Shown: positions 4,371 through 56,130 of the stretch, in pieces
Position numbering within the stretch: the stretch's first letter is position 1
Layout: every line of letters begins with the position of its first letter
Assembly: GCF_046119375.1 (NCBI RefSeq)
Contig: NW_027362763.1
Span: 416,020,001-416,084,000 of the forward strand
Direction of reading: 5' to 3'
From: Phyllobates terribilis
Lineage: Eukaryota
Length of the DNA stretch: 64,000 nt
The notes under the pieces: model-generated
Told to the model about the DNA's origin: nothing
What the model saw: only the letters and a program-made list of their open reading frames with translations
The model's database searches: none
Position numbers and translations under genes: made by a program

Positions 4371-5639
4371 TATATAGGGGATCTGTGGGGCCTACATACT
4401 GCATGTAAGGGAGCTGTTGGGGGCATCATACTGTATATAGGGGCTGTGGTGTCACTCAACAGCACAGTATGGTGGTGTGGAAGCTATCATACTGTATATA
4501 AAGGGCTGTGGTGCCTCCATGCTGCCTATAGAGGTGCCGTGGGGTTCATCATACTGTATTTAGTGAAGTTGCAGGGCTTCCATACTGCATATAGGGGTTG
4601 GGTGGGGGACACCATAGTGTATATAGAGGGCTTTGATGCTTCCATACTACATATTGGGGTGCTGTAGGGACCATAATATTGTATATCGGGGAGCTGTGGT
4701 GACCATTATACTGTATATAGGGAGCTACAGATAGTGAGGTGTGGGGACACTATACTATATATTTGGAGCTGTGGAGACAGCATACTGTATATAAGGAGCT
4801 GTGGGGACATCACTCTGTATATAGAAAACTGTTAGCACCTTCATACTATATACATTGAGCTGTGAGGACATCATAGGAAAATATATGTAGGAAAACTGTG
4901 GGTACCATCATACTGTGTATAGGAGGGCTTTGGGGATATCATTAGTGAGGAGCAAGCACTAAAATGCTCGGGTACTCGTTGCTCGGGTCGAGCAAATTGG
5001 AATGCTCGAGTGCTCGGTCCGACTAACGAGCCCAATGTAAGTCTATGGGAAACTTGAGCATTTCTCCGGCGGCCCTCCCCGGCGGTCTGCAGGGGGCCTA
5101 AAAATTGGCCAAATCAATGGGAACAGTGCTCAAATGACATGGGAACAGCATGGGGAAGATCCCTGGAAGCATCTCTGACTCCCAGGTCACTGCTGTCAAC
5201 AACGTTGCCAGAGGTATTACACCACTTTTACAGACTCAAAATGAAGCATACAAAAACAAAAACAAAATGGATTTTCCTGGGAAATATGTTAAGGAACATC
5301 CTTTCCAGGGTAATGACTTGTATATAAGGCAAAATAAATATACAAAAACAAAAATGCTCCTCCATACCTTAGGCTATGCTCACGCGTAGCGTTTTTGATG
5401 CGTTTTTCCACTTTTGCATTGCTTTCAACGGTGAAAAATACATTCACTGGTAAATGTCATTTTAACATTTTACTACCTTATCTGGCCATGTTGTGTGTGA
5501 GACATCATCAGACACATCCTATTTCATTTATGATGGAGGGACTCTGAAAGTCACAAAGCCTATTTTTATAGGGCCATCAGGCGGCCCTTACTATTCTTAA
5601 AGGTCCAGCAGTCGGCTATGCTTTGTTGTTCCCATTATT

Positions 5640-6400
5640 AAAGAGTATGTCTCCTATACTGATATTGGGTATGCAGTAACTGCAAGGACTGCCAAAAACT
5701 TGGACGCACCCCAAAACCACTTTGAAGAGACATAGAGGAGGGCCTAAGAAAAAAAAAATGACCCATTATAAAGGAGTGGGTCTCCTATAGTGGTAAATGC
5801 CCATGCAGTGACTGCAAGGCCTGCCAAAATTTGGGAGAACCCCCAATAACAATTTAAAGACACATAAAGGTGGGCCTCAGTAACGACATGTTCCTAATAG
5901 AAAGTAGGGGGTCTGCTATCCAGTTATAGGGTATGCTGTCAGTCCAACGGCTGCCAAAATTTAGGAAAAACCCCAATACCAATTTAAAGGCACATAGAGC
6001 TGGGCCACAGTAACGACATGTTCCCATTATAAAGGAGCAGTTCTGTTATACAGTTATAGGGTATGCAGTGATTGCAACAGCTGCCAAAAATTTGAAGGAA
6101 CTCCAATGCCCCTTGCAAGAGATGTAGAGGTCAGAGGGCCTCCTGAAAACAATGTTCCCATTGTTAGCTACTGGGTCTCCCATACTGTTTGCCTATGCAG
6201 CGAATTCAACGGCTGCCAAAAATTTGGAGGAAATCCAATGCCCCTTGCAAGAGATGTGGAGGACGGAGGGCCTCCTGAGAACAATGTTCTCATTATTAGG
6301 AAGAGGTTCTCCCATACTGTTTGTCTATGCAGTGAATGCAACGGTTGCCAAAAATTTGGAGGAACTCCGATGCCCCTTGCAAGAGACGTAGATATGGTGA
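5640..6400. repeat. Subterminal ~130-bp tandem repeats of hAT copy 2
   Basis: taacgacatgttcc recurs at 5881 and 6011 (130 bp apart). atgccccttgcaagaga recurs at 6106 and 6238 (132 bp apart). Confidence 0.8.
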
Positions 6401-16607: not shown

Positions 16608-17360
16608 CAGAGGTGGGGAACCTCCGGCCCGCAGGATGCATGTGGCCCGCGATGACCTTTTCTGTGGCCCCTGGGCAGAGTCCCAAGCACTGCAGTGCTC
16701 GGGCCAGCAGACGCATTTTGCCCTTTAAACCTCCACTTGCACTGCGAGCACATGCACGCAGCGTCCACTACTGAACATGCGCATGCATTGAAGGATTACA
16801 TCCTCATGGATGTACTTTGTGGGCGAAATTAGCGTGCAATGTGTTCCCGTCCCACAGGTGAAGAGAGCATCTATAATATAATCGTACAAGCTTCCCTCTG
16901 TCTGAAGCCTCTATAGACTACGCAAGCGCGACATGCCGGCGCAGTCTGGCTCCAGACAGAAGAACGCATGGAGCAGTTACAGGTAAGATGAGTGTATGGC
17001 GCCGGAGATCGCAGTATGCGCAGACACTGAACGCATACCGTGATCTCCGGCGCCATGCTTACCTGACCAGGAGGAGCGTTGCCGCGGCGCCTCTCTTCTC
17101 GCCGGAGACTGGGGCAGGAGTGAAAGCGTTGTAATCGGCACATGCACATAGCGCTATCCAGCACCATTTTACTGAAGACACATTTGCAGTGTGTCTTCAG
17201 CAAAATGGCGCCGGACAGCCGGTATGGGCACGCGCTTACTCCGGCGCCACACTCCTCCCCGGCCTCCAGCAGAACAGGACACAGCAGTGCTGGAGCACAG
17301 GGACGAAAGTTGAGTATAAGTGTTTTTTTTTTGTATGTGTGCAGCGTGAAAGGGATGAGG
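16608..17360 (+). mobile_element. Left end of a non-autonomous hAT/Charlie-like element leading into a minisatellite; right end not found
   Basis: Terminus CAGAGGTGGGGAACCTCCGGCCCGC is preceded by GTCTAAAG, close to the Charlie NTCTAGAN target consensus. Confidence 0.6.
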
Positions 17361-19320
17361 GGGCCACACATACCAGGATTGGGGGGTGAGGGGGGCACAC
17401 ATATCAGAATTGGGGGGTGATGGGGCCACACATACCAGGATTAGGGGATGAGGGGGCCACACATACCAGGATTGGGGGATGAGGGGGCCACACATACCAG
17501 GATTGGGGGATGAGGGGTACCATACATACCAGGATTGAGGGGTGAGGGGTACCATGCATACCAGGATTGGGGGTGAGGGGACCATGCATACCAGGATTGG
17601 GGATGAGGGGTGCCATGCATACCAGGATTGGGGATGAGGGGTGCCATGCAAACCAGGATTGGGGGGTGAGGGGTGTCATTCATACCAGGATTGGGGATGA
17701 GGGGTGCCATGCATACCAGGATTTGGGATGAGGGGTGCCATGCATACCAGGATTGGGGATGAGGGGTGTCATGCATACCAGGATTGGGGATGAGGGGTGC
17801 CATGCAAACCAGGATTGAGGATGAAGAGTGCCATGCATATCAGGATTGGGGATGAGGAGTGCCATGCATACCAGGATTGGGGATGAGGGGTGCCATGCAA
17901 ACCAGGATTGGGGATGAGGGGTGCCATGCATACCAGGATTGGGGATGAGGGGTGCCATGCATACCAGGATTGGGGATGAGGGGTGCCATGCATACCAGGA
18001 TTGGGGATGAGGGGTGCCATGCATACCAGGTTTGGGGGTGAGGGGTGCCATGCATACCAGGATTGGGTATGAGGGGTGCCATGCATACCAGGATTGGGGA
18101 TGAGGGGTGCCATGCATACCAGGATTGGGGATGAGGGGTGCCATGCAAACCAGGATTGAGGATGAAGAGTGCCATGCATATCAGGATTGGGGATGAGGAG
18201 TGCCATGCATACCAGGATTGGGGATGAGGGGTGCCATGCAAACCAGGATTGGGGATGAGGGGTGCCATGCATACCAGGATTGGGGATGAGGGGTGCCATG
18301 CATACCAGGATTGGGGATGAGGGGTGCCATGCATACCAGGATTGGGGATGAGGGGTGCCATGCATACCAGGATTGGGGGTGAGGGGTGCCATGCATACCA
18401 GGATTGGGGATGAGGGGTGCCATGCATACCAGGATTGGGGATGAGGGGTGCCATGCATACCAGGATTGGGGATGAGGGGTGCCATGCATACCAGGATTTG
18501 GAATGAGGGGTGGCATGCATACCAGGATAGGGATGAGGGGTACTATGCATACCAGGATAGGGATCTGGGGGGCCATGCACACCAGGATTTGGATGAGGGG
18601 CCATGCATACGACGATAGGGATGAGGGTTACCATGTATACCAGGATAGGGATGAGGGGTACCATGCATACCAGGATGAGGGATGGGGTGGCATGCATACC
18701 AGGATAGGGATGAGGGGTACCATACATACCAGGATGAGGGGTACCATACATACCAGGTTAGGGATGAGGGGTACCATGCATACCAGGATGAGGGATGAGG
18801 TGCCATGCATACCAGGATAGGGATGAGGGGTACCATGCATACCAGGATGAGGGGTACCATACATACCAGGATAGGGAAGAGGGATGGGGTACCATGCATA
18901 CCAGGATTGGGTATGAGGGAGCCATGCATACCAGGATGAGGGGTGCCATGCATGCCAGGATTGGGATGAGGGGTGCCATATATACCAGGATTGGGGATGA
19001 GGGGTGCCATGCATACCAGGATTGGGGGTGAGGGGTGCCATGCAAACAGGATTGTTGGTGAGGGGGCCATACATACCAGGATTGGGGGTGAGGGGTGCCA
19101 TGCATACCAGGATTGGGGATGAAGGGTGCCATGCATACCAGGATAGTGGTGAGGGGTGCCATGCATACCAGGATTGGGAGTGAGGGGTGCCATGCATACC
19201 AGGATTGGGGATGAGGGGTGCCATGCATACCAGGATAGGGATGAGGGCAGCACATAACATGATGGGGGCAGCACAAATACCAGGATGGGGGCAGCACATA
19301 CCAGCATGGGAGACCATATA
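17360..19320. repeat. 31-32 bp G-rich minisatellite array (~60 units)
   Basis: Unit ggattggggatgaggggtgccatgcatacca. The ORF track shows a 31-aa period, equal to 3 units. Confidence 0.95.
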
Positions 19321-21041: not shown

Positions 21042-22058
21042 TGACTCACTCCCTGGGCCGTGGGGCACCCGGAACCGGGCTTCTGTGCGATGCTGGGGGT
21101 AGTAGTGGCAACCCGATCCCGAGGCTCAGGGTGGTCAGACCAAATTGTGTGGCAGTCTGTTTATAGATTTGGGAATGTCTGACTATGCCACCCGTGGATT
21201 GCGGTCAGAGATAACCGCCGCTGCGAGGCAGACCACTGAGGCTGGTGTTGGTGTGCAGCACAGGGGTAGGACAACTCCCCATGGGAAGAGTGTAGCCTCA
21301 GGGCAGTGTAGGTGAATGCTGGGGGTGATAGTGCAGGCCGCAATAGTAAGAGTTCAGAGTCCGCTTCAAACAGTCCAGGTTCTTTATTGCAGATGTTATT
21401 ACTGACCCAACAGGAGTACCGGTTAGGAATGGGCCTGGGTATCTGAGAGCATTCGGGCGAGCCCCACTGGTCAGGGTGAGTGTGTAGGCCTACCGTCCTC
21501 TCTCTGTGCTCTTGCTGACTATCCCCCTTTTCGTGGTGTAATAGCCCACGTCCCTGAGCTGGCCGTGTACTTTCCCTGTATGGCTTGCGACTCGGGCCTT
21601 GGGTGCCTTTTGCTTCTCCTTGCTGTACTGGTCCCTCTGTGTGGCGGAGCCTCCAGGCTTCTTAGGCCAAGGGACCTGAAATCCCTCGCGGGTTGGTTCT
21701 CTGCTGCTGGGCTTGCAACCCTGACAGCCTCGGACCCCAATGTCCGGTTGTGTACTTCTCTCAGCCAGGACCGGCTCTCGTCGCCTCTGTCCCTGGCTCG
21801 CAGTCTCTCCTCTGCCTCACGGACTCCTCAGCTGCTGCTGACCTGTCCCTCTTCTCTGAGAACCCTTCTGGACACTTCAGAAGTGGGTTCTGGTCTCTCT
21901 AACCCTGCCCCAGTTCCAGCTTTTATAGGGGCAGCCTGCTCCCCCTACTGGCCTGGGACAGGAGGTGCTGCATGCTAATGGTCCCTGACCAGGGAACCTC
22001 CCTCCTGCTCTCAGACACAGCCTTTAATATTTGTGGCATCCAGGCCTGGGGTGACACA
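21042..22058 (-). mobile_element. Solo LTR (1017 bp) of a Gypsy lineage structurally related to element A
   Basis: On the minus strand it runs TGTGTCACCCC...GAGTCA. 4-bp TSD AGTA at 21038-21041 and 22059-22062. AATAAA on the minus strand at about 21383-21388. Confidence 0.85.
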
Positions 22059-22177: not shown

Positions 22178-22248
22178 GGCCTAATTCATACATAAATTTT
22201 TTGGTCAGTGTTTCATCAGTATTTTAAAGTCAAAACCAGGAGTGGCTC
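22178..22248. mobile_element. Left arm of a palindromic Harbinger-type MITE split by Gypsy A (right arm 34315-34437)
   Basis: TIR GGCCTAATT / AATTAGGCC. The arm ttttggtcagtgtttcatcagt..aaaaccaggagtgg is mirrored at 34352-34412. Flanks are TAA and TTA. Confidence 0.85.
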
Positions 22249-23302
22249 TTTGGCACCCTGCTGCGCACAGGTACCACAGGACCCGGGGTGCATGGACGGA
22301 CTTCTCCACAAGAGGCCCTCATTACATACAAACACCTCCACCCTTCCACCTCACACCACCAGAGGGAGTCCGGATAGGGATATATATATGGAGGGTGGAG
22401 CCACACAGCTCAGTTTGTTGTGAGTCAGACAGAGAGAGAGTCTGAGAGCGTGCTGACGCTGAGAACAGCGAACACGCAGCGCATCTGCTGCTGGGTTCTG
22501 AGGGCCCTGAGTGTGGCCAAAGGCAAGAGGAGAAAGGAGAGAGGAGTTGAGGGGGCAGAGGAGCATCATAGGCTCACCCCGATATAGAAACCGGACACCG
22601 GGTCCGCGCCTACAGAGTCCCTTTATACCCAGAAAGGATCACCGGCATTCCAGGAGGACTACAAGTCCCTGGACGACCTGAAGTTAGACCCATTACAGGA
22701 CCAGGAACCACAAGGCCCCAGCGTCCAGGGAGAGTGGTTACCAGCAGAAGGTCCTACTACCGAGCGACAGGTGAAGGAACAGCACGACACATAAGCTAGG
22801 CCCAGTTGCAGGCTGGCCAGTAGCATACAGAGAGGCAGACACGGACCAGGAGGCCTTATACCCGCTCACTGGGGAGAAGTCCTGAAGTGCAGCCACCCTA
22901 CTGAGTACCCTGGACCGTACCTGACATCCGCACCAGTAAAGGTATTGAAGCGAATCCCCTGTCTCTGTCAGTTACTCCTGCTACACCATCCCGCCTGCAC
23001 TACAAGCCCCAGCATCACCACCATCAAACTCCACACTGCCCTGGGGGCCTGCTCCACCTGTGGGGAGCAGAAACACCTCAGCTGCCATCCCATCACCCCC
23101 CGGAGGTCTGCAGCAGCGCTGGTAAAAACCTTACCAGGTACCACAGGTGTTGTCACGAACTTTATAACCCCCCCCTATAAATAAAACCCCCCCTTTTTAT
23201 TGACCACCCTGGGTCATGGACCGCGCCAGCCACCGTGATATCCCCCACCAGCATCCATAGGCCCGGCTGCCGAGTAACCCCCACGGCCCAGGGGGCGCGT
23301 CA
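22249..23302 (+). repeat. 5' LTR of Gypsy A (1054 bp)
   Basis: Homologous to 33368-34314. Start TTTGGCACCC (family start TGTGGCACCC), end GGGGGCGCGTCA. TATA-like GATATATATAT at ~22379 and AGTAAA at ~22936. Confidence 0.9.
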
Positions 23303-23307
23303 ACTTC

Positions 23308-23325
23308 TGGCGTCACGAACAGGAT
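23308..23325 (+). other. Primer-binding site of Gypsy A (tRNA-Ser type)
   Basis: TGGCGTCACGAACAGGAT, 5 nt after the LTR. It is complementary to the 3' end (..ATCCTGTTCGTGACG-CCA) of vertebrate tRNA-Ser(CGA) as I recall it; not database-checked. Confidence 0.8.
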
Positions 23326-23716
23326 TTCGTGTCCGTTGCAACGAACAGGATTCTGTGCCCGTTGCCATCGGGTACTGTGCGCCTTAAAAGACTGTAACAC
23401 TTACTGTGGTGAAGATTTCCCCCATTCCCGAGGTTTCCCGCCATTTTCCTGTCGCCGTGCAGGAAGAAGAGGGGCGTAACCGTGGGAATCGGAGAGGCGT
23501 AACCGCTGGAAGCGCGCGAAGCCCAGGCCCCGCCTCGCGCCTTGACGCTGAACCAGGAAGCGTCAGGTCCTAGAAGGAGACCGTTGTCAAGCGCACGCTC
23601 TGACGTCAGCCGCGAGCGAGACGCAAGGTCCTGGAAGGAGACCGTCGCCTGCGGAGATGCGGCCTACCCGATCAAAGTAAAGAAGGTAGGCTACAGTTTA
23701 CCAGGGGGGCGCAACC

Positions 23717-24784
23717 ATGGCCGACGACCAGCAAGCCGCCGGAGCACCGGTTAACGCTCCTGATGCCCAACTTGTGCCCGGCGCTGCACAGGCCGGAGTG
23801 GCCGCCCCACCAGCAGGGGTCGTGACTCCGTTGATACCTATGGCCCTTCCGTATATCCCTGGAGTGAAATGGCTTCCCCAGTATGATGGCAGACCAGACA
23901 CCCTGTCTGGGTTCAAGAGAAAAATATGCGGTGTACTGGATATGTATTCTATGATTGGTAAGCAGAGAGCCACTGTTGTGCTGGGACAATTGACTGGTGC
24001 TGCAGAGCGGGAAGTTGAAACCTGGCCAGCCGCAGACCAGGAATCAGTATCCATTATCTTTAAGAGACTGCAAACTGTGTTTGAAAACCGCACTGAGACA
24101 GATCTCCGGATGAGGTTCTACCACTGTGCCCAGAAACCTGAGGACAGTATCCGGGACTACGCCTGGCGCTTACAGGAAGCCCTGCGGGCCCTGAAACAGG
24201 TTAGTCCAGCCAGCATACAAGATGAGAATAAAATGCTGATGGAACAGTTCATCCGGGGGTGGAGGTCCCAGGAGGAGAGCAGAACTGTACGGTGGTGGGC
24301 TTTAGATCATCCAGATGCCACCTTTTACACCCTTAAGGACATGGCTATAAAGGGTCTGCAGCCCCTGGAAACAACAGATACTGCTATCCAGCGTTACCAG
24401 GGTGGGGCCACCCCAGTGCCCGCAGCACCCACTGCTCCTTCATTAACGGCTGAAACAAAGATGCAAACAGTGTCCCCTAGCGAGCTGGACAGCCTGCGCT
24501 CGAAAGTGAGTCAGCTAAGCAAAACTCTGACCACTGTCCTGAGCGCCCTACAGCTACGGATGGAGCCCGAGATGGAAGGAAGGATCCTGCTAGCTGACAG
24601 CCCTGAGGATGTCCCCTGGATGAGGAGAAGAAGGAAGGCGACGCCACCCCGTGGGAGGACCAGCGACCAACTCCGCCCGCCAAAGGAACTCATCTGCTAC
24701 CGTTGCCACAAGGCAGGCCACGCTGCCCGGACCTGCCCTTTAAACGAGAAAACCCTGGGGCCGAGGGCAGACACCCAGGAGTAG
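23717..24784 (+). CDS. gag: Gag of Gypsy A (PNMA-like capsid plus CCHC zinc knuckle), 355 aa
   Basis: Uninterrupted ORF downstream of the PBS, with a capsid-like region (QKPEDSIRDYAWRL) and the knuckle CYRCHKAGHAARTC. Confidence 0.85.
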   Translation: MADDQQAAGAPVNAPDAQLVPGAAQAGVAAPPAGVVTPLIPMALPYIPGVKWLPQYDGRPDTLSGFKRKICGVLDMYSMIGKQRATVVLGQLTGAAEREVETWPAADQESVSIIFKRLQTVFENRTETDLRMRFYHCAQKPEDSIRDYAWRLQEALRALKQVSPASIQDENKMLMEQFIRGWRSQEESRTVRWWALDHPDATFYTLKDMAIKGLQPLETTDTAIQRYQGGATPVPAAPTAPSLTAETKMQTVSPSELDSLRSKVSQLSKTLTTVLSALQLRMEPEMEGRILLADSPEDVPWMRRRRKATPPRGRTSDQLRPPKELICYRCHKAGHAARTCPLNEKTLGPRADTQE

Positions 24785-25253: not shown

Positions 25254-26517
25254 TGTAGTGCCGGCGTCCCTGCCCTCTGCTAGGCAGGGACGCTGTTCCC
25301 CTCACCGCTCTGCTCCGTGCCCGGCGTCCCTCTCCCGCTCTGCTGGCAGCGCGCGCTCCTTCCCGGCCACTGTGCTTAGGGCGCGCGCGCGCGCCCTCCC
25401 TCCCTCTTAAAGGGGCCGCGCGCGCCGTCCTAAGGAGTCCCCGGCCAATGGCCGGAGGACTTTACCATATATAAGGCACCTCCTCCAAAATGGAGGTGCC
25501 CGAGCAATGTTGTTGCACCGTTCTACTCTGCTTCAGCCCTCAGGTCCCGTTGCCAGTTACCTGCCAGTTACCTGCCAGATTCCTGCCAGCTTGCTGTCCT
25601 AATCCTGCCTGATTTCCTGTTACCTGCCTGCCTGCCTGAGGTCCGACGGTCTGCCTTACAACTCCGGTCAGTCTGTCTAAGGACCAACTTGCCCGCTCAC
25701 CTGGGAGCGCACATCAGCTACCTGCCTGCTTGCCTGAGGTCCGACGGTCTGCCTTACAACTCCGGTCAGTCTGTCTATGGACCAGCTTGCCCGCTCACCT
25801 GGGAGTGCTTCTCCGCTACCTGCCTGCTTGCCTGCCCGGAGGCTCCGCTGTCACGTGCTGTGACCACCAGCTATTCCAGACTCTTGCCCGCTCACCTGGG
25901 AGCGCTTCTCCGCTACCTGCCTGCTTGCCTGCCCGGAGGCTCCGCTGTCACGTGCTGGGACCACCAGCTATTCCAGACTCTTGCCCGCTCACCTGGGAGC
26001 GCTTCTCCGCTACCTGCCTGCTTGCCTGCCCGGGGGTTCCGCTGTCACGTGCTGGGACCACCAGCTATTCCAGAGACTCTTGCCCGCTCACCTGGGAGCG
26101 CTTCTCCGCTACCTGCTTGCTTGCCTACCTGGAGGCTCCGCCGTCACGTGCTGTGACCACCTGCTATTCCAGAGACTCTCGCTTGCTCACCTGGGAGCAC
26201 ACATCCTCCATCTGCCTTGCTAGCCTACCTGGAGGTTCAGCCATCACAGGTCGTACCTACCCTTTACCTAGAGACTGCCCCGGTCACTTGCCGTGACCTC
26301 CAGCCCGTTCTTCCAGAGACTGCCCCGGTCACTTGCCGTGACCTCCAGCCCGTTCTTCCAGAGACTGCCCTGATCACTTGCCGTGACCTCCTGCCCGTAC
26401 ACCCAGAGACTGTCCCGGTCACCTGCTGTGACTGCCTGCTTGGTCGCCACCCGCTCCCTTACAAGGACCGCTCCCTTGTATAGTAGCCCAGAGGTTCCGC
26501 CTCCCAGACCCGTTACA
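25254..26517 (+). repeat. 5' LTR of element B (1264 bp)
   Basis: Near-identical to 30732-31989: about 7 substitutions and one 6-bp (GC)n indel by manual comparison. Confidence 0.97.
25443..25507 (+). promoter_or_regulatory. LTR promoter core of B: CCAAT, TATA, 9-bp hairpin and predicted start region
   Basis: GGCCAAT at 25443-25449, TATATAA at 25468-25474, stem GGCACCTCC/GGAGGTGCC at 25475-25500, and GCCCGAGCAA at 25498-25507. Confidence 0.7.
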
Positions 26518-26519
26518 GT

Positions 26520-26529
26520 TTGCTCGGGC
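26520..26529 (+). other. Self-priming PBS of element B
   Basis: TTGCTCGGGC lies just after the LTR and is exactly complementary to 25498-25507. There is no TGG-type tRNA PBS. Confidence 0.75.
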
Positions 26530-26530
26530 C

Positions 26531-27481
26531 ATGGAACCCGGTGGCACCCAAGCTCCCTCGCTCTCGGACCTGTGTCATGAACTGTCCCGTCAAAGGTCCC
26601 AACAGGAGTCCATCCTGGGTCACCTGCGGAATGTCAATACTCGCCTGGACACTCTGACTGTTCCACCAACAACCTCCGCCAGTGCCATGTCTCGCAATCC
26701 GGCAGCTCCGCTATCCACTAACACCATGATATCCTACCCCGAACCTCGGCTTTCTGCACCTCCTCGCTTCGGAGGCGACTCAGCCCAGGCTCGGGGCTTC
26801 ATAAATCAGTGCACCCTGCACTTTGAACTATTGTCCCACCAGTTTAACTCCGACCGAGCCAAAATTGCATTCATCATGTCCCATCTCACCGGGGAGGCCC
26901 TGGCCTGGCTAAATCCTCTATGGGAGAGAGGAGACCCCCTGGTGTCCAACTTGCCTGCTTTTCTCACGGCTTTCCGGAAAGTCTTCGACGAACCCGGACG
27001 GAAGACCTCATCCGCATCATCGTTGCTACGCCTCCGTCAGGAAAGTCTCACCGTGGGCCAATATGCCATACGGTTCCGTACCCTTGCCTCGGAGCTGGCC
27101 TGGGATAACGACGCTCTGGTTTCCGTCTTCTGGGAGGGTCTGTCCGGCCGTATTAAAGATGAACTTGCCGGTCGGGACATTCCTACCACTCTCGATGACT
27201 TAATAACTCTTGCCACCCGGATTGACCTACGGTTCCAGGAGCGTGCCAGAGAGGTCACCCGTGAGAGGAGGTTACCACGTCTAGCTCCTACTTTTCAGAA
27301 ACCCGTCACTCCTTCTGTCTCTAACCAGGTACACCCTCCTGAGCCTATGCAGGTCGACCAGACCAAGATGGTCAAGACCCGTCAGGACTTACGCCGTGCC
27401 GAGGGGACCTGCTTCTACTGTGGCAGTAAGGAGCACCGGATCCGTGCCTGCCCGGAGAGGTCGGGAAACGCCTGTGTCTAG
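26531..27481 (+). CDS. gag: Gag of chromovirus B (PEG10/RTL-like capsid plus CCHC), 316 aa
   Basis: Motifs LSAPPRFGGDSAQARGFINQC, LRQESLTVGQYAIRFRTLA and the knuckle CFYCGSKEHRIRAC. Confidence 0.95.
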   Translation: MEPGGTQAPSLSDLCHELSRQRSQQESILGHLRNVNTRLDTLTVPPTTSASAMSRNPAAPLSTNTMISYPEPRLSAPPRFGGDSAQARGFINQCTLHFELLSHQFNSDRAKIAFIMSHLTGEALAWLNPLWERGDPLVSNLPAFLTAFRKVFDEPGRKTSSASSLLRLRQESLTVGQYAIRFRTLASELAWDNDALVSVFWEGLSGRIKDELAGRDIPTTLDDLITLATRIDLRFQERAREVTRERRLPRLAPTFQKPVTPSVSNQVHPPEPMQVDQTKMVKTRQDLRRAEGTCFYCGSKEHRIRACPERSGNACV

Positions 27482-30400
27482 GTTCGCTCAGAGAGGTCCA
27501 CCTAGACAAGAATAAATCCTCTCCATCCCTGCTGTTGTCAGTTTCAATCGTCTACGGGGAGAACCGTTATTTCGAACTAGCCCAACTGGACTCTGGAGCA
27601 GGCGGGAATCTTATTTCACAGTCCCTGGTAGAGAAATACCGCATCCCCACCAAACCTCTGGCTGTACCCTTGTCTGTTGCTGCCGTGGATGGGGGGCTCT
27701 TACCACGCCCCATCCAACTCATCACCGAATCCATTACTCTGCAGGTGGGAATGCTGCATTCTGAAAGTATCTCCTTCCATGTTCTGCCTGGACTCTCTCA
27801 CGCCCTCTTGCTAGGCCTACCTTGGCTCCAGAAACATGCACCCGTTCTTGACTGGCAGACCGGAGAAGTCCTTCGCTGGGGACAGGGCTGCCATAAGACC
27901 TGTCTGGTTCCCGTTCATCCCGTCCGTCCTTCTCCTACCCCAGCTAATCTACCTGGACTTCCGATTCCTTATTGGTCTTATGCTGATGTCTTTAATAAAA
28001 AGGAGGCAGAGACACTACCCCCTCATAGACCATACGACTGCCCTATCGACCTGTTACCTGGTACTTCTCCTCCCCGTGGGCGTATTTATCCATTATCCGC
28101 TGCTGAGACCCAGTCGATGTCCGAATATATTGAGGAGAATCTGGCCAGGGGATTCATCCGGAAATCTACCTCCCTGGCGGGAGCAGGCTTCTTTTTCGTC
28201 AAAAAGAAGGACGGCTCTCTCCGTCCCTGTATAGACTATAGAGGCCTTAACCAGATCACGGTGAAGAATAAGTACCCCCTTCCGCTCATTCCGGAGTTAT
28301 TTGATCGTCTGAGGGGGGCTAGAATCTTCACCAAACTGGACCTCCGTGGGGCGTACAACCTGGTTCGTATCCGTCAGGGGGATGAATGGAAGACGGCATT
28401 CAACACCCGGGACGGCCACTATGAATATCTGGTAATGCCCTTTGGCCTCTGTAACGCTCCTGCCGTCTTTCAAGAGTTGGTCAATGACATCTTCCGGGAC
28501 CTTCTCTACTCCTGCGTAGTGGTGTACCTGGACGACATCTTGGTCTTCTCTCCGGATCTCCAGACTCACCGGAGGGATGTTTGTCAGGTCCTGCTCAGGC
28601 TCAGGCAGAACCATCTCTACGCTAAATATGAGAAGTGCCTCTTTGAGCAGACCTCGCTTCCGTTTCTGGGCTACATTATCTCTCAGACCGGCCTACAAAT
28701 GGATCCTGAGAAACTGTCTGCCATCGAGAAATGGCCCCGACCAGAGGGGTTGAAGGCTATTCAACGGTTCCTGGGCTTCGCCAACTATTACCGCCTCTTC
28801 ATCCCGCACTTCTCTTCCCGGACTGCCCCAATTTCCGCGCTCACCCGTAAGGGTACTAATCCCAAAGAGTGGCCGCCCGAAGCAGAGGAGGCCTTTCTTT
28901 CCCTAAAACAGGCCTTCTCTTCCGCCCCGGTGCTGCATCGCCTGGACGGCAACAAGCAGTTCTTCCTGGAAGTTGACGCCTCCTCCTCTGGAGCCGGAGC
29001 GGTACTTACTCAAAAATCATCTTCCGGGAGAATGGTAACTTGTGGCTTCTTCTCCAAACTCTTCTCCTCTTCTGAGCGCAACTATTCCATAGGAGACCGA
29101 GAGTTATTGGCCATCAAGCTGGCGTTGGAGGAGTGGTGTTACCTACTCGAGGGGGCTCTTCATCCGGTAATAATTTACACTGACCACAAGAACTTGGCTT
29201 ACCTCCAGCATGCCCAGAGACTTAACCCGCGCCAAGCCCGGTGGTCCTTGTTTTTTGCTCGCTTTGATTTTGTTCTTCATTTTCGCCCGGCTGACAAAAA
29301 CGTCAAAGCAGACGCCTTGTCCCGATCCTTTCTGGTGTCCGATCTCGAGGAAGAACCTAAACATATCATCGATCCCGCCAGAGTAATGCAGGTGGCTCCC
29401 GTGAGTCTAAATCGTCTCCCTCCCGGTAAGACGTTTGTTTCAGTACCTGATCGGGAGAAGATCCTACACTGGGGCCATTCGTCTAAACTAGCTGGCCACG
29501 CCGGTCAGAAAAAGACCCTCCAGCTTATTGCCCGGCACTATTGGTGGCCTACCCTGCACAAGGACATAATAGACTTTGTTTCTGCCTGTGTGTCCTGCGC
29601 CCGCAACAAAGTCCCGAGACATCTGCCAGCCGGACGCCTCCTTCCGCTTCCTGTACCTGCTGCCCCCTGGCAGCATATAGCAATGGACTTTATAACTGAT
29701 CTCCCCGTCTCTGCCGGTTGTACGGTCATTTGGGTGGTCGCTGACCGCTTTTCCAAGATGGCTCACTTTATTCCCCTGCCAGGCCTTCCGTCTGCACCCG
29801 AGCTGGCTAAAGACTTTATCCGCCACATCTTCTGTCTTCATGGCCTGCCCCTCCACATCGTGTCGGATCGTGGGGTACATTTCACCTCACGTTTCTGGAG
29901 AGCCACTTGTAAACTACTAGACGTCACCCTGGACTTCTCTTCCGCTTACCACCCACAGTCCAATGGTCAAGTGGAGCGGATCAATCAGAACCTGACCAGT
30001 TACCTCCGGCACTTCGTTAATGCCCACCATTCTGACTGGGTGGATCTCCTACCATGGGCCGAGTTCTCTTATAATAATCACGAGAGCGAATCCTCCTCCA
30101 AATCCCCGTTTTTTGTAGTCTTTGGTCAGCATCCTCGGATTCCTTTTCCTGTCTCCACCTCTGTGGACAACCCGGCTGCGGAATCTCTCATTAGCAAATT
30201 TTCCTCCATATGGGAGAGTACCCGGTCCGCACTCCTTCTGTCATCCGAGCGTATGAAAAGACACGCTGACAAAAAACGCCTGGATCCTCCACAATTTCGT
30301 CCAGGAGATAAAGTCTGGCTCTCATCTAAATATGTTCGACTCAAGATACCTTCTTACAAGTTAGGGCCTCGGTTCATCGGTCCTCTGGAGGTCATCAGTC

Positions 30401-30882
30401 AGATCAACCCGGTGGCCTATAAATTGAAACTCCCGGCCATCTTACGGATCCCTAACTCCTTCCATGTATCTCTCCTCAAACCCGTGGTGCTTAACTCTTT
30501 TTCCAAGTCTACAGGTACGCCTCCTGCTCCGGTTTCTGCTGAGGACGAGTTTGAGGTAGAGAACATTCTTGCCACCAAAAGGGTAAGAGGAAAGACCTTT
30601 TTTCTGGTAGATTGGAAGGGGTTTGGTCCTGAGGAGAGAACGTGGGAGCCCCGGGAGAACATCCATGCCCCTCTCATCCTAGCTAAATTTCTATCTGGCC
30701 TAAAAAAGGGGGGGCCTAAAGGGGGGGGTACTGTAGTGCCGGCGTCCCTGCCCTCTGCTAGGCAGGGACGCTGTTCCCCTCACCGCTCTGCTCCGTGCCC
30801 GGCGTCCCTCTCCCGCTCTGCTGGCAGCGCGCGCTCCTTCCCGGCCACTGTGCTTAGGGCGCGCGCCCTCCCTCCCTCTTAA
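27469..30882 (+). CDS. pol: Pol of chromovirus B, expressed by -1 frameshift (PR, RT, RNaseH, IN, chromodomain)
   Basis: Open from the GGGAAAC site. Motifs LDSGA, VVYLDD, EVDAS/RELLA/TDHKNL, H-x6-H..CVSC, MDFITD/SDRG/QVER and FEVENIL..VDWKGFGPEERTWEP. Confidence 0.95.
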   Translation, partial: RLCLGSLREVHLDKNKSSPSLLLSVSIVYGENRYFELAQLDSGAGGNLISQSLVEKYRIPTKPLAVPLSVAAVDGGLLPRPIQLITESITLQVGMLHSESISFHVLPGLSHALLLGLPWLQKHAPVLDWQTGEVLRWGQGCHKTCLVPVHPVRPSPTPANLPGLPIPYWSYADVFNKKEAETLPPHRPYDCPIDLLPGTSPPRGRIYPLSAAETQSMSEYIEENLARGFIRKSTSLAGAGFFFVKKKDGSLRPCIDYRGLNQITVKNKYPLPLIPELFDRLRGARIFTKLDLRGAYNLVRIRQGDEWKTAFNTRDGHYEYLVMPFGLCNAPAVFQELVNDIFRDLLYSCVVVYLDDILVFSPDLQTHRRDVCQVLLRLRQNHLYAKYEKCLFEQTSLPFLGYIISQTGLQMDPEKLSAIEKWPRPEGLKAIQRFLGFANYYRLFIPHFSSRTAPISALTRKGTNPKEWPPEAEEAFLSLKQAFSSAPVLHRLDGNKQFFLEVDASSSGAGAVLTQKSSSGRMVTCGFFSKLFSSSERNYSIGDRELLAIKLALEEWCYLLEGALHPVIIYTDHKNLAYLQHAQRLNPRQARWSLFFARFDFVLHFRPADKNVKADALSRSFLVSDLEEEPKHIIDPARVMQVAPVSLNRLPPGKTFVSVPDREKILHWGHSSKLAGHAGQKKTLQLIARHYWWPTLHKDIIDFVSACVSCARNKVPRHLPAGRLLPLPVPAAPWQHIAMDFITDLPVSAGCTVIWVVADRFSKMAHFIPLPGLPSAPELAKDFIRHIFCLHGLPLHIVSDRGVHFTSRFWRATCKLLDVTLDFSSAYHPQSNGQVERINQNLTSYLRHFVNAHHSDWVDLLPWAEFSYNNHESESSSKSPFFVVFGQHPRIPFPVSTSVDNPAAESLISKFSSIWESTRSALLLSSERMKRHADKKRLDPPQFRPGDKVWLSSKYVRLKIPSYKLGPRFIGPLEVISQINPVAYKLKLPAILRIPNSFHVSLLKPVVLNSFSKSTGTPPAPVSAEDEFEVENILATKRVRGKTFFLVDWKGFGPEERTWEPRENIHAPLILAKFLSGLKKGGPKGGGTVVPASLPSARQGRCSPHRSAPCPASLSRSAGSARSFPATVLRARALPPS
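30700..30730 (+). other. Polypurine tract of element B
   Basis: A6-G7-cctaaa-G8-ta immediately before the 3' LTR. Confidence 0.85.
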
Positions 30883-31989
30883 AGGGGCCGCGCGCGCCGT
30901 CCTAAGGAGTCCCCGGCCAATGGCCGGAGGACTTTACCATATATAAGGCACCTCCTCCAAAATGGAGGTGCCCGAGCAATGCTGTTGCACCGTTCTACTC
31001 TGCTTCAGCCCTCAGGTCCCGTTGCCAGTTACCTGCCAGTTACCTGCCAGATTCCTGCCAGCTTGCTGTCCTAATCCTGCCTGATTTCCTGTTACCTGCC
31101 TGCCTGCCTGAGGTCCGACGGTCTGCCTTACAACTCCGGTCAGTCTGTCTAAGGACCAACTTGCCCGCTCACCTGGGAGCGCACATCAGCTACCTGCCTG
31201 CTTGCCTGAGGTCCGACGGTCTGCCTTACAACTCCGGTCAGTCTGTCCAAGGACCAGCTTGCCCGCTCACCTGGGAGCGCTTCTCCGCTACCTGCCTGCT
31301 TGCCTGCCCGGAGGCTCCGCTGTCACGTGCTGTGACCACCAGCTATTCCAGACTCTTGCCCGCTCACCTGGGAGCGCTTCTCCGCTACCTGCCTGCTTGC
31401 CTGCCCGGAGGCTCCGCTGTCACGTGCTGTGACCACCAGCTATTCCAGACTCTTGCCCGCTCACCTGGGAGCGCTTCTCCGCTACCTGCCTGCTTGCCTG
31501 CCCGGGGGTTCCGCTGTCACGTGCTGGGACCACCAGCTATTCCAGAGACTCTTGCCCGCTCACCTGGGAGCGCTTCTCCGCTACCTGCCTGCTTGCCTAC
31601 CTGGAGGCTCCGCCGTCACGTGCTGTGACCACCTGCTATTCCAGAGACTCTCGCTTGCTCACCTGGGAGCACACATCCTCCATCTGCCTTGCTAGCCTAC
31701 CTGGAGGTTCAGCCATCACAGGTCGTACCTACCCTTTACCTAGAGACTGCCCCGGTCACTTGCCGTGACCTCCAGCCCGTTCTTCCAGAGACTGCCCCGG
31801 TCACTTGCCGTGACCTCCAGCCCGTTCTTCCAGAGACTGCCCTGATCACTTGCCGTGACCTCCTGCCCGTACACCCAGAGACTGTCCCGGTCACCTGCTG
31901 TGACTGCCTGCCTGGTCGCCACCCGCTCCCTTACAAGGACCGCTCCCTTGTATAGTAGCCCAGAGGTTCCGCCTCCCAGACCCGTTACA
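30732..31989 (+). repeat. 3' LTR of element B (1258 bp)
   Basis: TGTAGTGCC...CCGTTACA, followed by the TSD GTGAA. Confidence 0.97.
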
Positions 31990-32968
31990 GTGAAATTGGT
32001 AATGTACGGGTGACAGACCCGATGCTCACTGTGATACCCCCGTTAAGCGAAATGTTGATTTGGTGTAGGGCAGCAATAGGTCTCAGGGGACAGAACTACC
32101 AGGCGGTAGTAGAGTCCATTAGCTCAGAGCACAGACCTACACTGTTAACTGCCAGAGGGGTAGTTGACGTATGCAATGGGAGGGTACCCATCCGTCTCCT
32201 AAATTATGGAGAAGAGGAAGTTAAATTGCCACGATACGCCACGGTTGCCAGATTATATACTGTGGACAATAGCGACATACACACAGTAGAGTCCTTAACC
32301 TCATCAGACACAGTGGAGGGTAATGACTCAGACACCCAGGTGGGGGATTGGTGTCAACAGCTCCATGTTGGGACTGACGCCACTCCTGTCCATCAAAAAG
32401 AAGGTGTACACAGGGTGGTCCAGGAATACGAACAGGTATTCAGAAAACACCCACTTGATTTTGGGAGGATTAAAGGGGTACAACACCATATACCCACAGG
32501 TGACCATCCACCCATCAAAGAACGTTACAGGCCTATACCACCAGCACACTACCAGAAATCGAAGGAAATGTTGCATGACATGAAGAAAGCTGGGGTAATA
32601 AGAGATAGCTGTAGCCCCTGGGCAGCTCCCCTGGTCCTGGTCAGGAAAAAGGATGGAAGCATGAGGATGTGTGTAGATTACAGACAGGTAAATCGCATAA
32701 CACATAAAGATGCATACCCTTTGCCCCGTATAGAGGAATCCCTGGCTGCACTAAAGTCTGCAAATTACTTCTCTACGCTTGACCTCACTAGTGGGTACTG
32801 GCAAGTAGCAGTTGCTGAGGAGGACCGGGAGAAGACAGCCTTCACTACCCCGACGGGACTCTGCGAGTTCAACAGTATGCCGTTCGGACTCTGCAACGCC
32901 CCTGGAACGTTCCAGAGATTGATGGAGTGCTGTTTGGGACACTGTAACTTCGAGACCGTGCTGCTATA
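31990..32968 (+). pseudogene. pol: Gypsy A pol part 2: PR-RT linker and reverse transcriptase, cut at the Tyr of YxDD
   Basis: SPWAAPLVLVRKKDGSMRMCVDYR, DLTSGYWQV, MPFGLCNAPGTFQRLM..ETVLLY, then a Tc1 TIR. Confidence 0.9.
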
Positions 32969-33198
32969 CAGTACAGACCAAAAGATTGGACACACCTTCT
33001 CATTTAAAGATTTTTCTGTATTTTCATGACTTTGAAAATTGTACATTCACACTGAAGGCATCAAAACTATGAATTAACACATGTGGAATTATATACTTAA
33101 CAAAAAAGTGTGAAACAACTGAAAATATGTCTTATATTCTAGGTTCTTCAAAGTAGCCACCTTTTGCTTTGATGACTGCTTTGCACACTCTTAGCATT
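32969..33198 (+). mobile_element. Tc1 terminal fragment (one TIR only)
   Basis: TA followed by CAGTACAGACCAAAAGATTGGACACACC; it ends abruptly at about 33198. Confidence 0.8.
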
Positions 33199-33367
33199 AG
33201 TTAGACAATTGAAAAAAGCCTTGGACAGGCTGAAACGTCTTGTGTGAGTTGTGGAATAAATCAACTGATTATCAACACGTGAGTGCCGGGATTTTCTTTT
33301 CCTACAGACATTGTTTTCCACGTGCACCACTCTAGCTATACGGAGTGCCGACTATTCCTTTTTGATA
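33199..33367 (+). mobile_element. Probable Penelope-like element terminal-repeat/tail remnant
   Basis: Hammerhead-like motif, then AATAAA (33256-33261), then GTGAGTGCCG, an order that resembles PLE tails. Confidence 0.55.
33201..33247 (+). ncRNA. Minimal type I hammerhead-ribozyme-like motif (U3-A8 core variant)
   Basis: Stem I TTAGACAA/TTGTGTGA, core TTGAAAA(A), stem II AGCCT-tggac-AGGCT, GAA, palindromic stem III ACGT, and a GUC cleavage triplet at 33237-33239. Confidence 0.6.
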
Positions 33368-34314
33368 CTCATTACATACAAACACCTCCACCCTTCCACC
33401 TCACACCACCAGAGTGACCCTGGATAGGGATATATATATGGAGGGTGGAGCCAGACAGCTCAGTTTGTTGTGAGTCAGACTGAGAGAGAGAGTCTGAGAG
33501 CGTGCTGGGTTCTGAGGGCCCTGAGTGTGGCGGAAGGCAAGAGGAGAAAGGAGAGAGGAGTTGAGGGGGCAGAGGAGCATCATAGGCTCACCCCGATATA
33601 CAAACCGGACACCGGGTCTGTGCCTACAGGGTCCCTTTATACCCAATAGGGATTACCGGCATTCCAGGAGGACTACAAGTCCCTGGACGACCAGAAGCTA
33701 GACCCATTACAGGACCAGGAACCACAAGGCCCCAGCGTCCAGGGAGAGTGGTTACCAGCAGAAGGTCCTACTACCGAGCAACAGGTGAAGGAACAGCATG
33801 ACACATAAGCTAGGCCCTGTTGCAGGCTGGCCAGGAGCATACAGAGAGGCAGACACAGACCAGGAGGCCTTATACCCGCTCACTGGGGAGAAGTCCTGAA
33901 GTGCAGCCACCTTACTGAGTACCCTGGACCGTACCTGACATCTGCACCAGTAAAGGTATTGAAGCGAATCCCCTGTCTCTGTCAGTTACTCCTGCTACGC
34001 CACCCCGCCTGCACTACAAGCCCCAGCATCACCACTATCAAACTCCACACTGCCCCGGGGGCCCGCTCCACCTGTGGGGAGCAGAAACACCTCAGCTGCC
34101 ATCCCATCACCCCCCGGAGGTCTGCAGCAGCACTGGTAAACCTTACCAGGTACCACAGGTGGCGTCACAAACTTTATAAACCCCCCCTATAAATAAAAAA
34201 AACCCTTTTTATTGTCCGCCCTGGGTCACGGACCGGGCCAGCCACCATGATATCCCCCACCAGCATCCATAGGCCCGGCTGCCGAGTAACCCCCACGGCC
34301 TAGGGGGTGTGTCA
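33368..34314 (+). repeat. 3' LTR of Gypsy A (first ~70 bp missing)
   Basis: Colinear with 22318-23302, with scattered substitutions and a ~35-bp deletion. Ends GTGTGTCA, followed by the TSD GCTC. Confidence 0.9.
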
Positions 34315-35048
34315 GCTCCACAGTACAGGTCCAATTCTTTTAACAATATTTTTTTTCTCATAGGTTCCACTCCTGTTTTTTGCTTACAAACACTGATGAA
34401 ACACTGACCAAAAAAAACCTGACCTACAAATTAGGCCTTACTGTGAATTGATAGAGGCAACTCCCCCCACCATCTCCCAATCAAGGCCTCTTTCTAACAA
34501 CCAAAGTTGTTAGAAGTTTATTGGGAATTCTGCTGTATTTCAGTTGTGGTGACGCTGCAGGGAAATTATTCACCCACAGATTATAGCTAACATCTGGTGA
34601 GGGCTGTTTGTAATTATTTTATCAATCTAACAAAAGGCATTATCTAAAGTGAATAATCCCATTAAAACCCTGTTGATCCATCTGTCATTGTTTCTACTAG
34701 AGAGCATTTTGCTTTTCAGTAGCTTTGATCATTGGTCATATGCCGAGTCGGCTGCCTTGGAATTTGGGCTCAATTTTGATAAACAGTGAAGTTATAGGTC
34801 CTTATGACAGCAGCTTACCTGAAAAGAACCCAAAGGACACTTCCTGTAATGCAATGCATAGAAAAAGGTCAACCAGTATAATAAGCCAAGCAAGTGTCAA
34901 TGCTATGGCCAGTTTACCAGAGTGTATAGACTATAAATTGTAGATCACGTAATCAAATAATTAAAATCCTATAAGAATTCTCAGTTGAGAACATGTTCAG
35001 TATTTTTTCAGCTGTGTTCCGGTTCACTGCAGGAAACGTGTTATTATA

Positions 35049-47059: not shown

Positions 47060-47470
47060 AATGGCCCGCACTAGCCCTCCAAACAGTATAATGGCCCCCA
47101 CACAGCCCTCCAAACAGTATAATGACCCCCACACAGCATAATGGACCCCACACAAACCTTCACACCGTATTGCTTTCATACAGTATAATGGCCCCCCACA
47201 TAGCCCTGAAAATATTATAACGGCCCCACATAGCCTTCCATATAGTATAATACGCTACCCATAATCCTCCATATAGTAAAATGCGCCCCCGATAATCCTC
47301 GATATAGTACAATGCGCCCCCCATAATCATCCATATAGTATAATGAACTTCCCATTGTCCTCCATAGAATATAATGCACTCCCCATAGTCCTCCATACAG
47401 TATATTACACACCCCATAGGGTAAAATGCTGCCCCCATATAGTATAATACACCCCACAGTCCTGCAGTAT
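47060..47470. repeat. ~30-bp minisatellite (cagtataatggcccccacatagccc), related in reverse to 3140-4942
   Basis: Recurring (c/t)agtataatg..ccccc..(t/g)agcc/tcc units. Confidence 0.8.
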
Positions 47471-47619
47471 TATGGGCACCACGTTCTCACTGATTGTAAA
47501 ATACCGTATATTTTAAATAAGCCGACCCGAGTATAAGCCGAGGCCCCTAAGGCCACAAAAAACTGGGAAAACGTATTGACTCGAGTATAAGCATAGGGTG
47601 GGAAATGCAGCAGCTACTG

Positions 47620-48285
47620 GTACATTTCCCCCTCCTGGTACGCATGGCTCCCTCATCACCAATCCTGGTATGTATGGCACCTCTCATCCCCCAATCCTGG
47701 TACGTTTGGCACCCCTCATCCCCCAATCCTGGTATGCTTGGCCTCCTCACCCCCAAATCCTGGTATGTGTGACCCCCTCATCCCCCAATTCTGGTATGCA
47801 TGGCACCCCTCACCCCCAATCCTGGTATGCATGGCACCCCTCATCCCCAATCCTGGTAGATATGGCACCCCTCATCCCCCAATCCTGGAATGCATGGCAT
47901 CCCTCATCCCCAATCCTGGTATGTATGGCACCCCTCATCCCCCAATCTTGGTATGCATGGCCTCCTCATCCCCCAATCCTGGTATGTATGGCACCCCTCA
48001 TCCCCCAATCCTGGTGTGCATGGCCTCCTCATCCCCCAATCCTGGTATTTATGGCACCCCTCATCCCCCAATCCTGGTATGCATGGCATCCCTCATCCTC
48101 CAAACCTGGTATGCATGGCACACCTTATCCCTCAATCCTGGTATGCATGGGCTCCTCATCCCCCAATCCTGGTATGTGTGGCCCTCTAATCCCCCAATCC
48201 TGGTATGTGTGGCCCCATCATCCCCCAATCCTGGTATGTGTGGCCTCCTCATCGCCCAATCCTGGCATGCATGGCCCAATCACTG
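47620..48285. repeat. 31-32 bp minisatellite, reverse complement of the 17360-19320 array (~20 units)
   Basis: Unit cccctcatcccccaatcctggtatgcatggca. Confidence 0.93.
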
Positions 48286-49369
48286 CACACATAAAACAAA
48301 TAAACACTTATACACACCTGCCTTCCTCACCTCTGTTCCAGCACTGCGTCCTGTCTGCCAGCAGCTCATGTCAGCATCTGAGCAGCGCAAACTCTCAGAT
48401 GCTGCTGTGAGCTGCCGGCATATTCACTCCTCTCCACACTGGGACTATGGGCATGGAAAAGAGTGAATATGTATTCTCTTTAGCAGCGGGCACTGTCAGC
48501 AGGAGCCGTGGCTCAGTGCTCCTCTGTGCCCGCTGCTGAAGAGAATGAATATTCATTCTTCTCCACACCCATGGGAGTAGGGAAGAAGGAATAGTCATTT
48601 CCCTTTAGCAGTGGGCACACGTAGTAGCTGCAGCAGCGGCTACTGCGTGTGCCTGCTCCTCCGCCGCCACAACCTCCCCTCCCCCTGTAAATACAATACT
48701 CAACTATCCTCCTCGTTCCCCTGCTGCTTCGGTGCCCCCTGGCTCATGGGCTTCCCCCGCCTCATGGGCCCCATAGCAGTGGCGTGGCCTGCCGCCATTG
48801 GCGGTACGCCACTGGCAATGGAGCTCTGAGAAGCTACCTTCTGTTACAGCCTACCCCAACTAGGTGCTTCCAAGAGCATCATAGTAGATTGTCCTCTAGA
48901 TCTGCACATGTCTCTGTAGGCACTTGTGACCACTAGGTCATCATTACCACTGGCAGACAGTCAGGAGAGGGACCCGGTGCAAGAACAATACATGGACTAG
49001 TGATGAGCGAACATGCTCGCCACTGCTCGGTACTTGCCCGAGCATCAAGGTACTTGACAAGCTCAGCGCTCGGTGAGTATTTCCGGGTTGCTCGGGCCGG
49101 AACTCGGGTCTCCGTCCTGCATGTTTGGCGCTCTTTAGAGAGCCAATGAACATGCAGGGATTGCTTGCCACGCACTGTAATGCCATAGCCATGTTGGTTT
49201 TGGGCATTACAGTGATTGGCTGGCCGCACAGCGTCAGCAGGTCTATATAAGACCTGGCGCCGCTATGCTCGTCACAGTCTACCCCGGAATCAGGCAGAGT
49301 AGGGAGAGATGCTGCTGAGTCAGGGAGAGATTTGCTTGTTTATAGTTAGTATAGGTATTCCACAACATA

Positions 49370-55610: not shown

Positions 55611-56130
55611 TACTGTGGACCAGCTCTATGTGTCTTTAAATTGTTAGTGGTTTTTTTTCTAAATTTTGGCAGCCGTTGGACTCACTGCATACCCTATACC
55701 TGTATAGCAGACCCTCCGCTTTCTAATGGGAATATGTCATTACTGTGGCCCAGCTCTATGTGTCTTTAAATTGTTAGTGGGGTTTTTCCTAAATTTTGGC
55801 AGCCGTTAGACTCACTGCATACTCTATAACTGTATAGCAGACCCTCTGCTTTCTAATGGGAACATGTCGAAACTGTGGCCCAGCTCTATGTGTCTTTAAA
55901 TTGTTAGTAGGGTTTTTCATAAATGTAAGCAGCCGTTGAATTCCGTGCATACCCTATAACTGTATAGCAGACCCTCTTCTTTCTAATGGGAACATGTCGT
56001 TACTGTGGCCAGCTCTATGTGTCTTTAAATTGTTATTGGTGGTATTTCCCAAATTTAGGCAGCCCTTGCAGTCACTGCATGGGCATTACCACTATAGGAG
56101 ACCCACTCCTTTATAATGGGAACATTTTTT
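55611..56130. repeat. 130-bp tandem repeat x4 in the 3' subterminal region of hAT copy 3
   Basis: (t/a)actgtgg(a/c)c recurs at 55611, 55741, 55871 and 56001. Confidence 0.9.

Follow-up and report, generated by a model that had tools for sequence, protein, structure and literature searches.

A duplicate tRNA-complementary site within the LTRs of a clade of gypsy-like elements and its possible role in primer docking

A large clade of Ty3/gypsy elements from a 10.6-Gb frog genome displays, within its LTRs, a conserved segment that repeats the first 11-13 nucleotides of the primer-binding site (PBS). Comparison of copies indicates that this inner site is real and selected, and that it adds a duplication of the CCA-end match to the multipartite tRNA-template contacts already described; its function is putative. 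Quite possibly, though we propose it tentatively, the inner 11-13-mer is an accessory docking site for the acceptor arm of the primer tRNA, and neither a start point of synthesis nor an integration end.

The inner site and its conservation

The window, i.e. the whole stretch of 64,000 nucleotides analysed here, carries the element on its forward strand, to which all coordinates refer. The 5' LTR (22249-23302) starts with an inverted repeat (22249-22278), the 3' arm of which contains, in the window subfamily, the CAGGTACCACA that also accompanies the inner site; its first TG was mutated to TT in this copy, and relatives begin at the same point behind the polypurine tract (PPT). A 5-nt spacer (23303-23307) separates this LTR from the true 18-nt PBS (23308-23325), which begins where an earlier note on this DNA had put it. 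The 3' LTR (33368-34314) misses approximately 70 nt at its 5' end. Both LTRs did contain, as also claimed, CAGGTACCACA-GG followed by a PBS-like 13-mer (23135-23160 and 34147-34172), 142 nt before the true LTR ends at 23302 and 34314. The 13-mer, here called the inner site, occupies 23148-23160 and 34160-34172 and matches the 3'-terminal 13 nt of tRNA-Ser(CGA), with two substitutions in the first copy and one in the second. Chance expectation in a 1054-nt LTR was ~2e-5 for the exact 13-mer and 3e-4 for an 11-mer.

The primer was tRNA-Ser(CGA), the gene of which was called by ARAGORN in L033; this gene plus CCA is complementary to the PBS without a single mismatch. The host tRNA's 3' end matches the inner site over 13 nt, in agreement with the tRNA-Ser assignment of the earlier note, and the inner site thus shares with a PBS its complementarity to the host tRNA 3' end including the CCA (11-13 nt). 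Over-long complements of tRNA-Ser(CGA) including the CCA, reaching ~50 nt, were encountered in copies of this element group (L182, L184-L189, L032 and L051); they look as if reverse transcriptase (RT) had read far into the primer, and some then join unrelated sequence.

All 30 best relatives retrieved (of 40 scored, from 4263 candidates) carried the inner site, and 31,590 exact genomic matches were obtained with an inner-site 20-mer that allowed G or A at a single position; the full PBS gave 8,117. To avoid selecting on the motif, an unbiased sample was picked by the true PBS only: 81 among the first 100 PBS matches listed, minus two near-duplicates, provided 79 copies with a median identity of 0.67 over their last 330 nt. 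The inner 13-mer proved to be conserved across copies of the family and not local to the window, being present in 71 of these 79 copies (at most three mismatches in 16 nt); inspected copies without it displayed local deletions or a truncated U5. No inner site is present in the natural copies L222, L228 and L229. Watson-Crick matches to the tRNA were found in 75, 74, 74, 69, 69, 75, 76, 76 and 71 of the 79 copies at positions 1 to 9 and in 54, 75, 67 and 57 at positions 10 to 13, beyond which they dropped abruptly (15, 5 and 1 at positions 14 to 16). In a 66-row alignment with 13 multi-copy subfamilies, from which 14 truncated or rearranged copies were excluded, positions 1-9 and 11 were intact in all 13 subfamilies and position 10 in 12; two out of three subfamily substitutions at position 12 were G-U-compatible. 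The 11 conserved positions correspond to tRNA nt 66-76, i.e. the acceptor 3' strand plus NCCA.

Carriers of the inner site formed one group of 28 in an RT tree of 31 rows (support 92/99, not starred), and two outgroups with the same PBS fell outside this group. Fourfold-degenerate RT sites were 36-41 % identical between deep carrier lineages and 27 % identical to outgroups. Since the inner site was kept across lineages whose silent sites diverged to this extent, it is under selection. It was absent from the outgroup families with the same PBS and from metagenome relatives, and is dispensable for tRNA-Ser priming because these outgroups do without it. These comparisons mark the inner site as a trait derived and selected within a single large clade. 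Contigs under a second organism label also cover it. A metagenome scan provided 29 PBS matches, mostly due to chance; two displayed a gag match and two more were LTR-like by eye, an inner site being present in none. The single viral-contig match contained no retroelement proteins. Many other U5 blocks were conserved to an equal degree in the 79-copy sample, so that conservation cannot name the partner of the inner site.

Position 10 was G>A in 21 of the 79 copies and fixed as such in one subfamily. The CpG at this position had given 18 CA against 2 TG, to be compared with 1474:713 (about 2:1) in the true PBS. No tRNA isodecoder with U67, able to pair with A at position 10, was found among the matches examined; of eight, one was a true tRNA-Ser(CGA) gene. 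A U partner would accept G or A at this position, and the inner site might then pair with the first U3 nucleotides at the RNA 3' end, circularising the genomic RNA in the manner of the CYC5/CYC3 elements described for Ty1 (PMC3681743). In many cases the strongest intramolecular pairing was with the LTR start, at roughly -15 to -17 kcal/mol. This pairing is quite improbable as an explanation: the tRNA duplex is the stronger one, many copies (those with a window-type start included) do not have the LTR start among their top partners, LTR-start variants do not track inner-site variants, and the likeness of both segments stems from the terminal inverted repeat.

The inner site bound the tRNA with a predicted energy of -23.4 kcal/mol, versus -33.9 kcal/mol for the PBS. 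The earlier note had suggested a decoy for the tRNA or its fragments; this proposal is weak because the inner site binds less well than the PBS. 3' tRNA fragments bear a CCA end, which the inner site matches. As a decoy or an extra target for such fragments, it would be ~10 kcal/mol weaker than the PBS, lack the five nt that would pair with the 5' end of the fragment, and be present only once per RNA, in cis, all of which makes this role very improbable.

LTR ends and origin of the inner site

Integration used the outer end, as the earlier note had it: the window element was flanked by the target site duplication (TSD) GCTC (22245-22248 and 34315-34318), and 4-bp TSDs were also seen at the outer end in the five LTR pairs and the two solo LTRs that were checked. 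The inner site does not, as a PBS does, set the U5 end of integrated copies. No match was obtained for GGTACCACA, the inner end of the window subfamily, followed by the full PBS. One of 27 CCACA+PBS junctions corresponded to an inner end joined to the leader (L042/L122); since its 3' LTR was full length and its TSD (CACA) lay at the outer end, this fusion was attributed to deletion or mis-annealing between the two 13-mers. In the hairpin-type subfamilies, the inner site was followed by GG in 13,117 cases and by two letters other than G in 15. Fourteen of these 15 continued in the LTR, and the remaining one had a normal 5' LTR and no TSD. None of the 13,132 inner sites scanned, within these subfamilies and for ends that do not happen to precede G, terminated an element with a TSD.

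These observations bear on the proposal of the earlier note that alternative priming yields two LTR lengths. The geometry would permit a working alternative primer site producing short-LTR copies, and the single fused junction could be one of its products. That junction itself belongs to a copy integrated at its outer end, and together with the zero matches for a fused window-type end, the zero TSDs at inner ends and the outer-end TSDs of the elements checked, it largely refutes this activity for integrated copies; we regard it as scarcely credible. Growth of the LTR by capture of its own leader, also put forward at the time, was unsupported in that form, as the 142-nt extension displayed no similarity to the leader nor to upstream U5/LTR sequence.

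The earlier note had further described the inner CCACA plus two nt as the canonical junction of an LTR end with a PBS, i.e. a 'ghost' end. Spacers of the family were three to 11 nt long in 77 of 79 copies and two nt long in none, two copies being unscorable, which contradicts this geometry. This spacer, from the terminal CA of the LTR to the PBS, was hypervariable and often pyrimidine-rich, its length being two nt in metagenome relatives; with such variable spacers, the integrase would need to trim a variable overhang. As to the inverted match with the LTR start, the inner end was indeed the better one over the last five nt (4.4 versus 2.5 for the outer end). Over 11 nt the outer end scored 7.0 and the inner end 6.1, and the 11-nt match noted in the window turned out to be a subfamily trait, CAGGTA ahead of the inner site being found in none of the 71 PBS-chosen copies. 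The letters CAGGTA are part of the 3' arm of a small predicted hairpin, whose sequence varies among subfamilies and whose pairing is kept. The 'ghost end' holds only in part. PBS-finding software may miscall the LTR end by ~150 nt in this gypsy family.

An old LTR end plus PBS is a possible origin of the inner site. In its full form, this explanation states that an ancestral end (CA, two nt and a truncated tRNA copy) was internalised as U5 grew and is now retained for a purpose unrelated to tRNA, either because a protein binds it (on RNA or DNA) or because it contributes to the fold. Metagenome relatives with the same PBS show CA+2 nt junctions (L204, L218, L196), outgroups from the frog genome end in CCACA, and the better match of the inner last five nt to the LTR start is in keeping with a former end. 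Plus-strand strong-stop DNA of Ty3 stops after 12 nt of tRNA according to a review (PMC5371799), a plausible source of a copy of 12-13 nt, and a partner other than tRNA would agree with the excess of G>A at position 10. On the other hand, the extension is unlike both leader and upstream U5, the sequence CCACAGGT ahead of the inner site is accounted for by pairing with a hairpin loop (see below), and the conserved length is that of the tRNA acceptor strand; one outgroup with an equally long U5 carries, at the inner position, a loosely alignable segment that is not PBS-like, with another tRNA-complementary segment (site B, see below) at -96. On balance we deem the relic with a new role unlikely; if correct, it would provide a tidy case of LTR evolution. 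A relic origin is also compatible with docking of the tRNA.

Next to the true PBS, the leader of the window element repeats the last 11 PBS nt at 23341-23351. This repeat was found in 15 of 19 close relatives and in one of the 79 copies of the broad sample, a distribution that marks it as a recent subfamily duplication.

Predicted U5 structure and a proposed docking function

A likely poly(A) signal, AGTAAA, at 22935-22940 would place the inner site in U5. In 68 of 71 copies the hexamer A[AG]TAAA preceded the inner site by 150-260 nt (about 200), and only nine had one between this site and the PBS; its placement supports the earlier note in this respect, and the inner site probably belongs to U5 of the genomic RNA.

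Several helices were predicted upstream of the inner site. A long stem (23041-23102) has arms at ~23041-23048 and 23096-23102; five out of seven pairs of this helix 1 changed on both sides and 94 % of cells were paired. Within it lies a hairpin (23051-23068), its closing pair (helix 2) being C-G in 41 and U-A in 21 rows, with a loop (23056-23063) complementary to 23141-23148. The latter segment, CCACAGGT, comprises the supposed ghost end plus GG; its conservation and the helix counts designate it as a predicted pseudoknot arm, the hairpin loop lying ~85 nt upstream. This loop-arm helix was 97 % paired, with mostly G-U changes and one double change. A further predicted hairpin (23119-23137) provides, with its 3' arm, the CAG of the supposed ghost end, and five out of seven pairs of helices 5-6 displayed double changes. 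Downstream of the inner site, a hypervariable AU-rich linker (23161-23200) was mostly conserved below 60 %.

Over the named structure, 94.8 % of cells could pair, versus 88.4 in shuffles and 30-49 in slid controls, and double-change cells amounted to 162, versus 57 in shuffles. Covariation here means counts on the named helices, unsupervised mutual information being confounded by subfamily structure. The U5 fold stays a prediction because it was derived from the same sequences, and related copies inflate the covariation counts. Single-sequence folding of U5 was not unusually stable (z -0.7), and an Rfam search of 22240-23750 gave three chance-level matches, no family reaching its gathering score. 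HDV-like ribozymes are characterised by a P3 loop and a catalytic C; judged by eye, neither was conserved in the U5 fold, and this identity was rejected. Four short elements (L132, L133, L142, L146), with no gag or pol match and ~1.2-2.3 kb between their LTRs, retain the U5 structure and the inner site, as a cis-acting signal would.

A second tRNA-complementary segment, site B (23230-23239), can pair with nt 1-10 of tRNA-Ser(CGA). Its median distances were 70 nt to the inner site and 67 nt to the PBS. When tRNA 11-mers were scanned against U5 at every second position, the best binders were the two acceptor strands (-19.7 and -18.1 kcal/mol); for tRNA nt 1-11, one of 200 shuffles was as good. 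Variation of site B was mostly G-U-compatible; exceptions were nt 4, mismatched in 26 of 66 rows, and nt 5, where eight rows displayed CpG decay. One outgroup family (three of four copies tested) and one of three metagenome relatives displayed site B; a second outgroup family (none of three) and the two other metagenome relatives did not. The evidence for it is suggestive, since transitions yield wobble pairs by default and since site B is able to pair locally within U5 in some subfamilies. In silico, site B pairs with a part of the tRNA different from that bound by the PBS, while the inner site repeats the PBS match.

Among the readings offered by the earlier note, a second anchor for the tRNA fared best, as a function that we infer rather than observe. 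U5 could well dock the acceptor arm of the tRNA in a poorly extendable state before handing it off to the PBS. U5 would engage both strands of the acceptor arm: site B would hold the 5' strand (nt 1-10) of the tRNA halfway between the two 3'-end sites, leaving the CCA end to occupy the inner site or, alternatively, the true PBS. In the first position, the end of the primer would abut the 8-bp loop-arm helix and extend poorly. The PBS, with its 18 nt, would win thermodynamically and take over the tRNA. Docking would in this way load the primer, or park it, and set the time at which minus-strand synthesis begins. Complementarity, clade-wide conservation, covarying surroundings and the lack of any copy found to end at the inner site speak for docking; the G>A excess at position 10 with no matching isodecoder, the equally conserved U5 blocks and the outgroups without the site speak against it. 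The support expected from site B is weakened by its nt 4 mismatch, local pairing and patchy presence. A stricter version, in which tRNA-Ser is anchored in mid-U5 and its CCA swings between a parked site blocked by the pseudoknot and the PBS, as a two-state switch gating the start of reverse transcription, is a rather unlikely one.

Additional tRNA contacts have precedents, by analogy, in other elements (PMC1635307, PMC5371799). Drosophila Gypsy, as presented by Gabus et al. 2006 (PMC1635307), contains two binding sites for tRNA-Lys,2. This Ty3/gypsy element thereby resembles the present ones in offering its primer tRNA a further site of 11 nt, which does not serve priming. Outside the LTR and close to the 3' end of the RNA, that site binds the anticodon and T stems, which allows one tRNA to bridge both sites. 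Here, by contrast, the site is located in U5 and is complementary to the very CCA end that the PBS binds, so that the inner site and the PBS would be mutually exclusive for one tRNA. According to a review (PMC5371799), Ty1 and Ty3 have a bipartite PBS and extended tRNA contacts, and HIV-1, FIV and RSV have contacts outside the PBS. The present elements would share with these such extra pairing in or close to the LTR; site B belongs to this kind. The extra sites treated in the relevant parts of that review bind other tRNA arms, with no same-sense duplicate of the first 11-13 PBS nt among them. Ty1 also has a 5' pseudoknot near its tRNA-binding region that is required for efficient reverse transcription (PMC3681743); the position of the predicted U5 pseudoknot is similar, but its sequence is unrelated and the structure is here predicted from covariation only.

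A same-sense duplicate CCA-end site inside U5 was not found in the literature searched, a scope outside which fall Repbase/Dfam/GyDB annotations and most subscription papers. The earlier note knew of no description of this arrangement, which within that scope stood for the duplicate itself and has to be restricted in that multipartite tRNA sites are known from Ty1, Ty3 and Drosophila Gypsy. Loading of the primer with delayed initiation is understood in few models of LTR elements only. The duplicate CCA-end site, the site for the tRNA 5' strand and the covarying U5 pseudoknot co-occur across tens of thousands of copies and would form a compact system, with natural variants at hand, in which to study how vertebrate gypsy elements capture and hand off their primer.

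Family affiliation and other sequences of the window

The elements displayed the hallmarks of Ty3/gypsy (Metaviridae): LTRs, PBS, PPT and TSD. Full copies (e.g. L129, L134, L158) also displayed the order PR-RT-RH-IN, with RNase H and integrase behind RT; pol of the window copy breaks off beyond RT, a remnant of which (32460-32960; PF00078, E 3.7e-21) is interrupted downstream. In Gmr1-like elements integrase lies ahead of RT, and this identity was ruled out as RT precedes integrase in full copies. Self-priming elements of Tf1/sushi type use an LTR segment complementary to the PBS in place of a tRNA primer; this type was likewise ruled out, since the inner site runs in PBS sense and the true PBS is an 18-nt tRNA complement.

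The gag gene (23717-24784) is PNMA-like with a Retrotrans_gag domain (PF14893, E 1.3e-5; PF03732, E 2.9e-4), the PNMA match lying right at the curated cut-off (25.1 versus 25 bits). PNMA genes were assigned to the Barthez lineage of Metaviridae in a table of PMC3670739, and Barthez is therefore taken as the provisional home of this element group. PNMA-like gag, the PR-RT-RH-IN order of full copies and the 4-bp TSD are features in common with Barthez as presented there (PMC3670739). Relatives with the same PBS and no inner site do exist here.

An unrelated Gypsy element with a 5-bp TSD (GTGAA), an unbroken pol frame of 1080 codons and repeat-rich LTRs ~5472 nt apart is nested in the window copy at 25254-31989. 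RT is interrupted by the end of a putative Tc1/mariner-like element (~32968-33367), and a deletion removed the remaining pol and the beginning of the 3' LTR. Just upstream of the element, a reverse-oriented LTR-like stretch (~21500-22058) ends in the inverted repeat TGTGGCA..GTGACACA; similar sequence was present in L048. Elsewhere, the window contains tandem arrays with periods of 31 nt and 130-132 nt and several long dispersed repeats (17351-18960, 47190-48310, 5600-6400 and 55300-56270).
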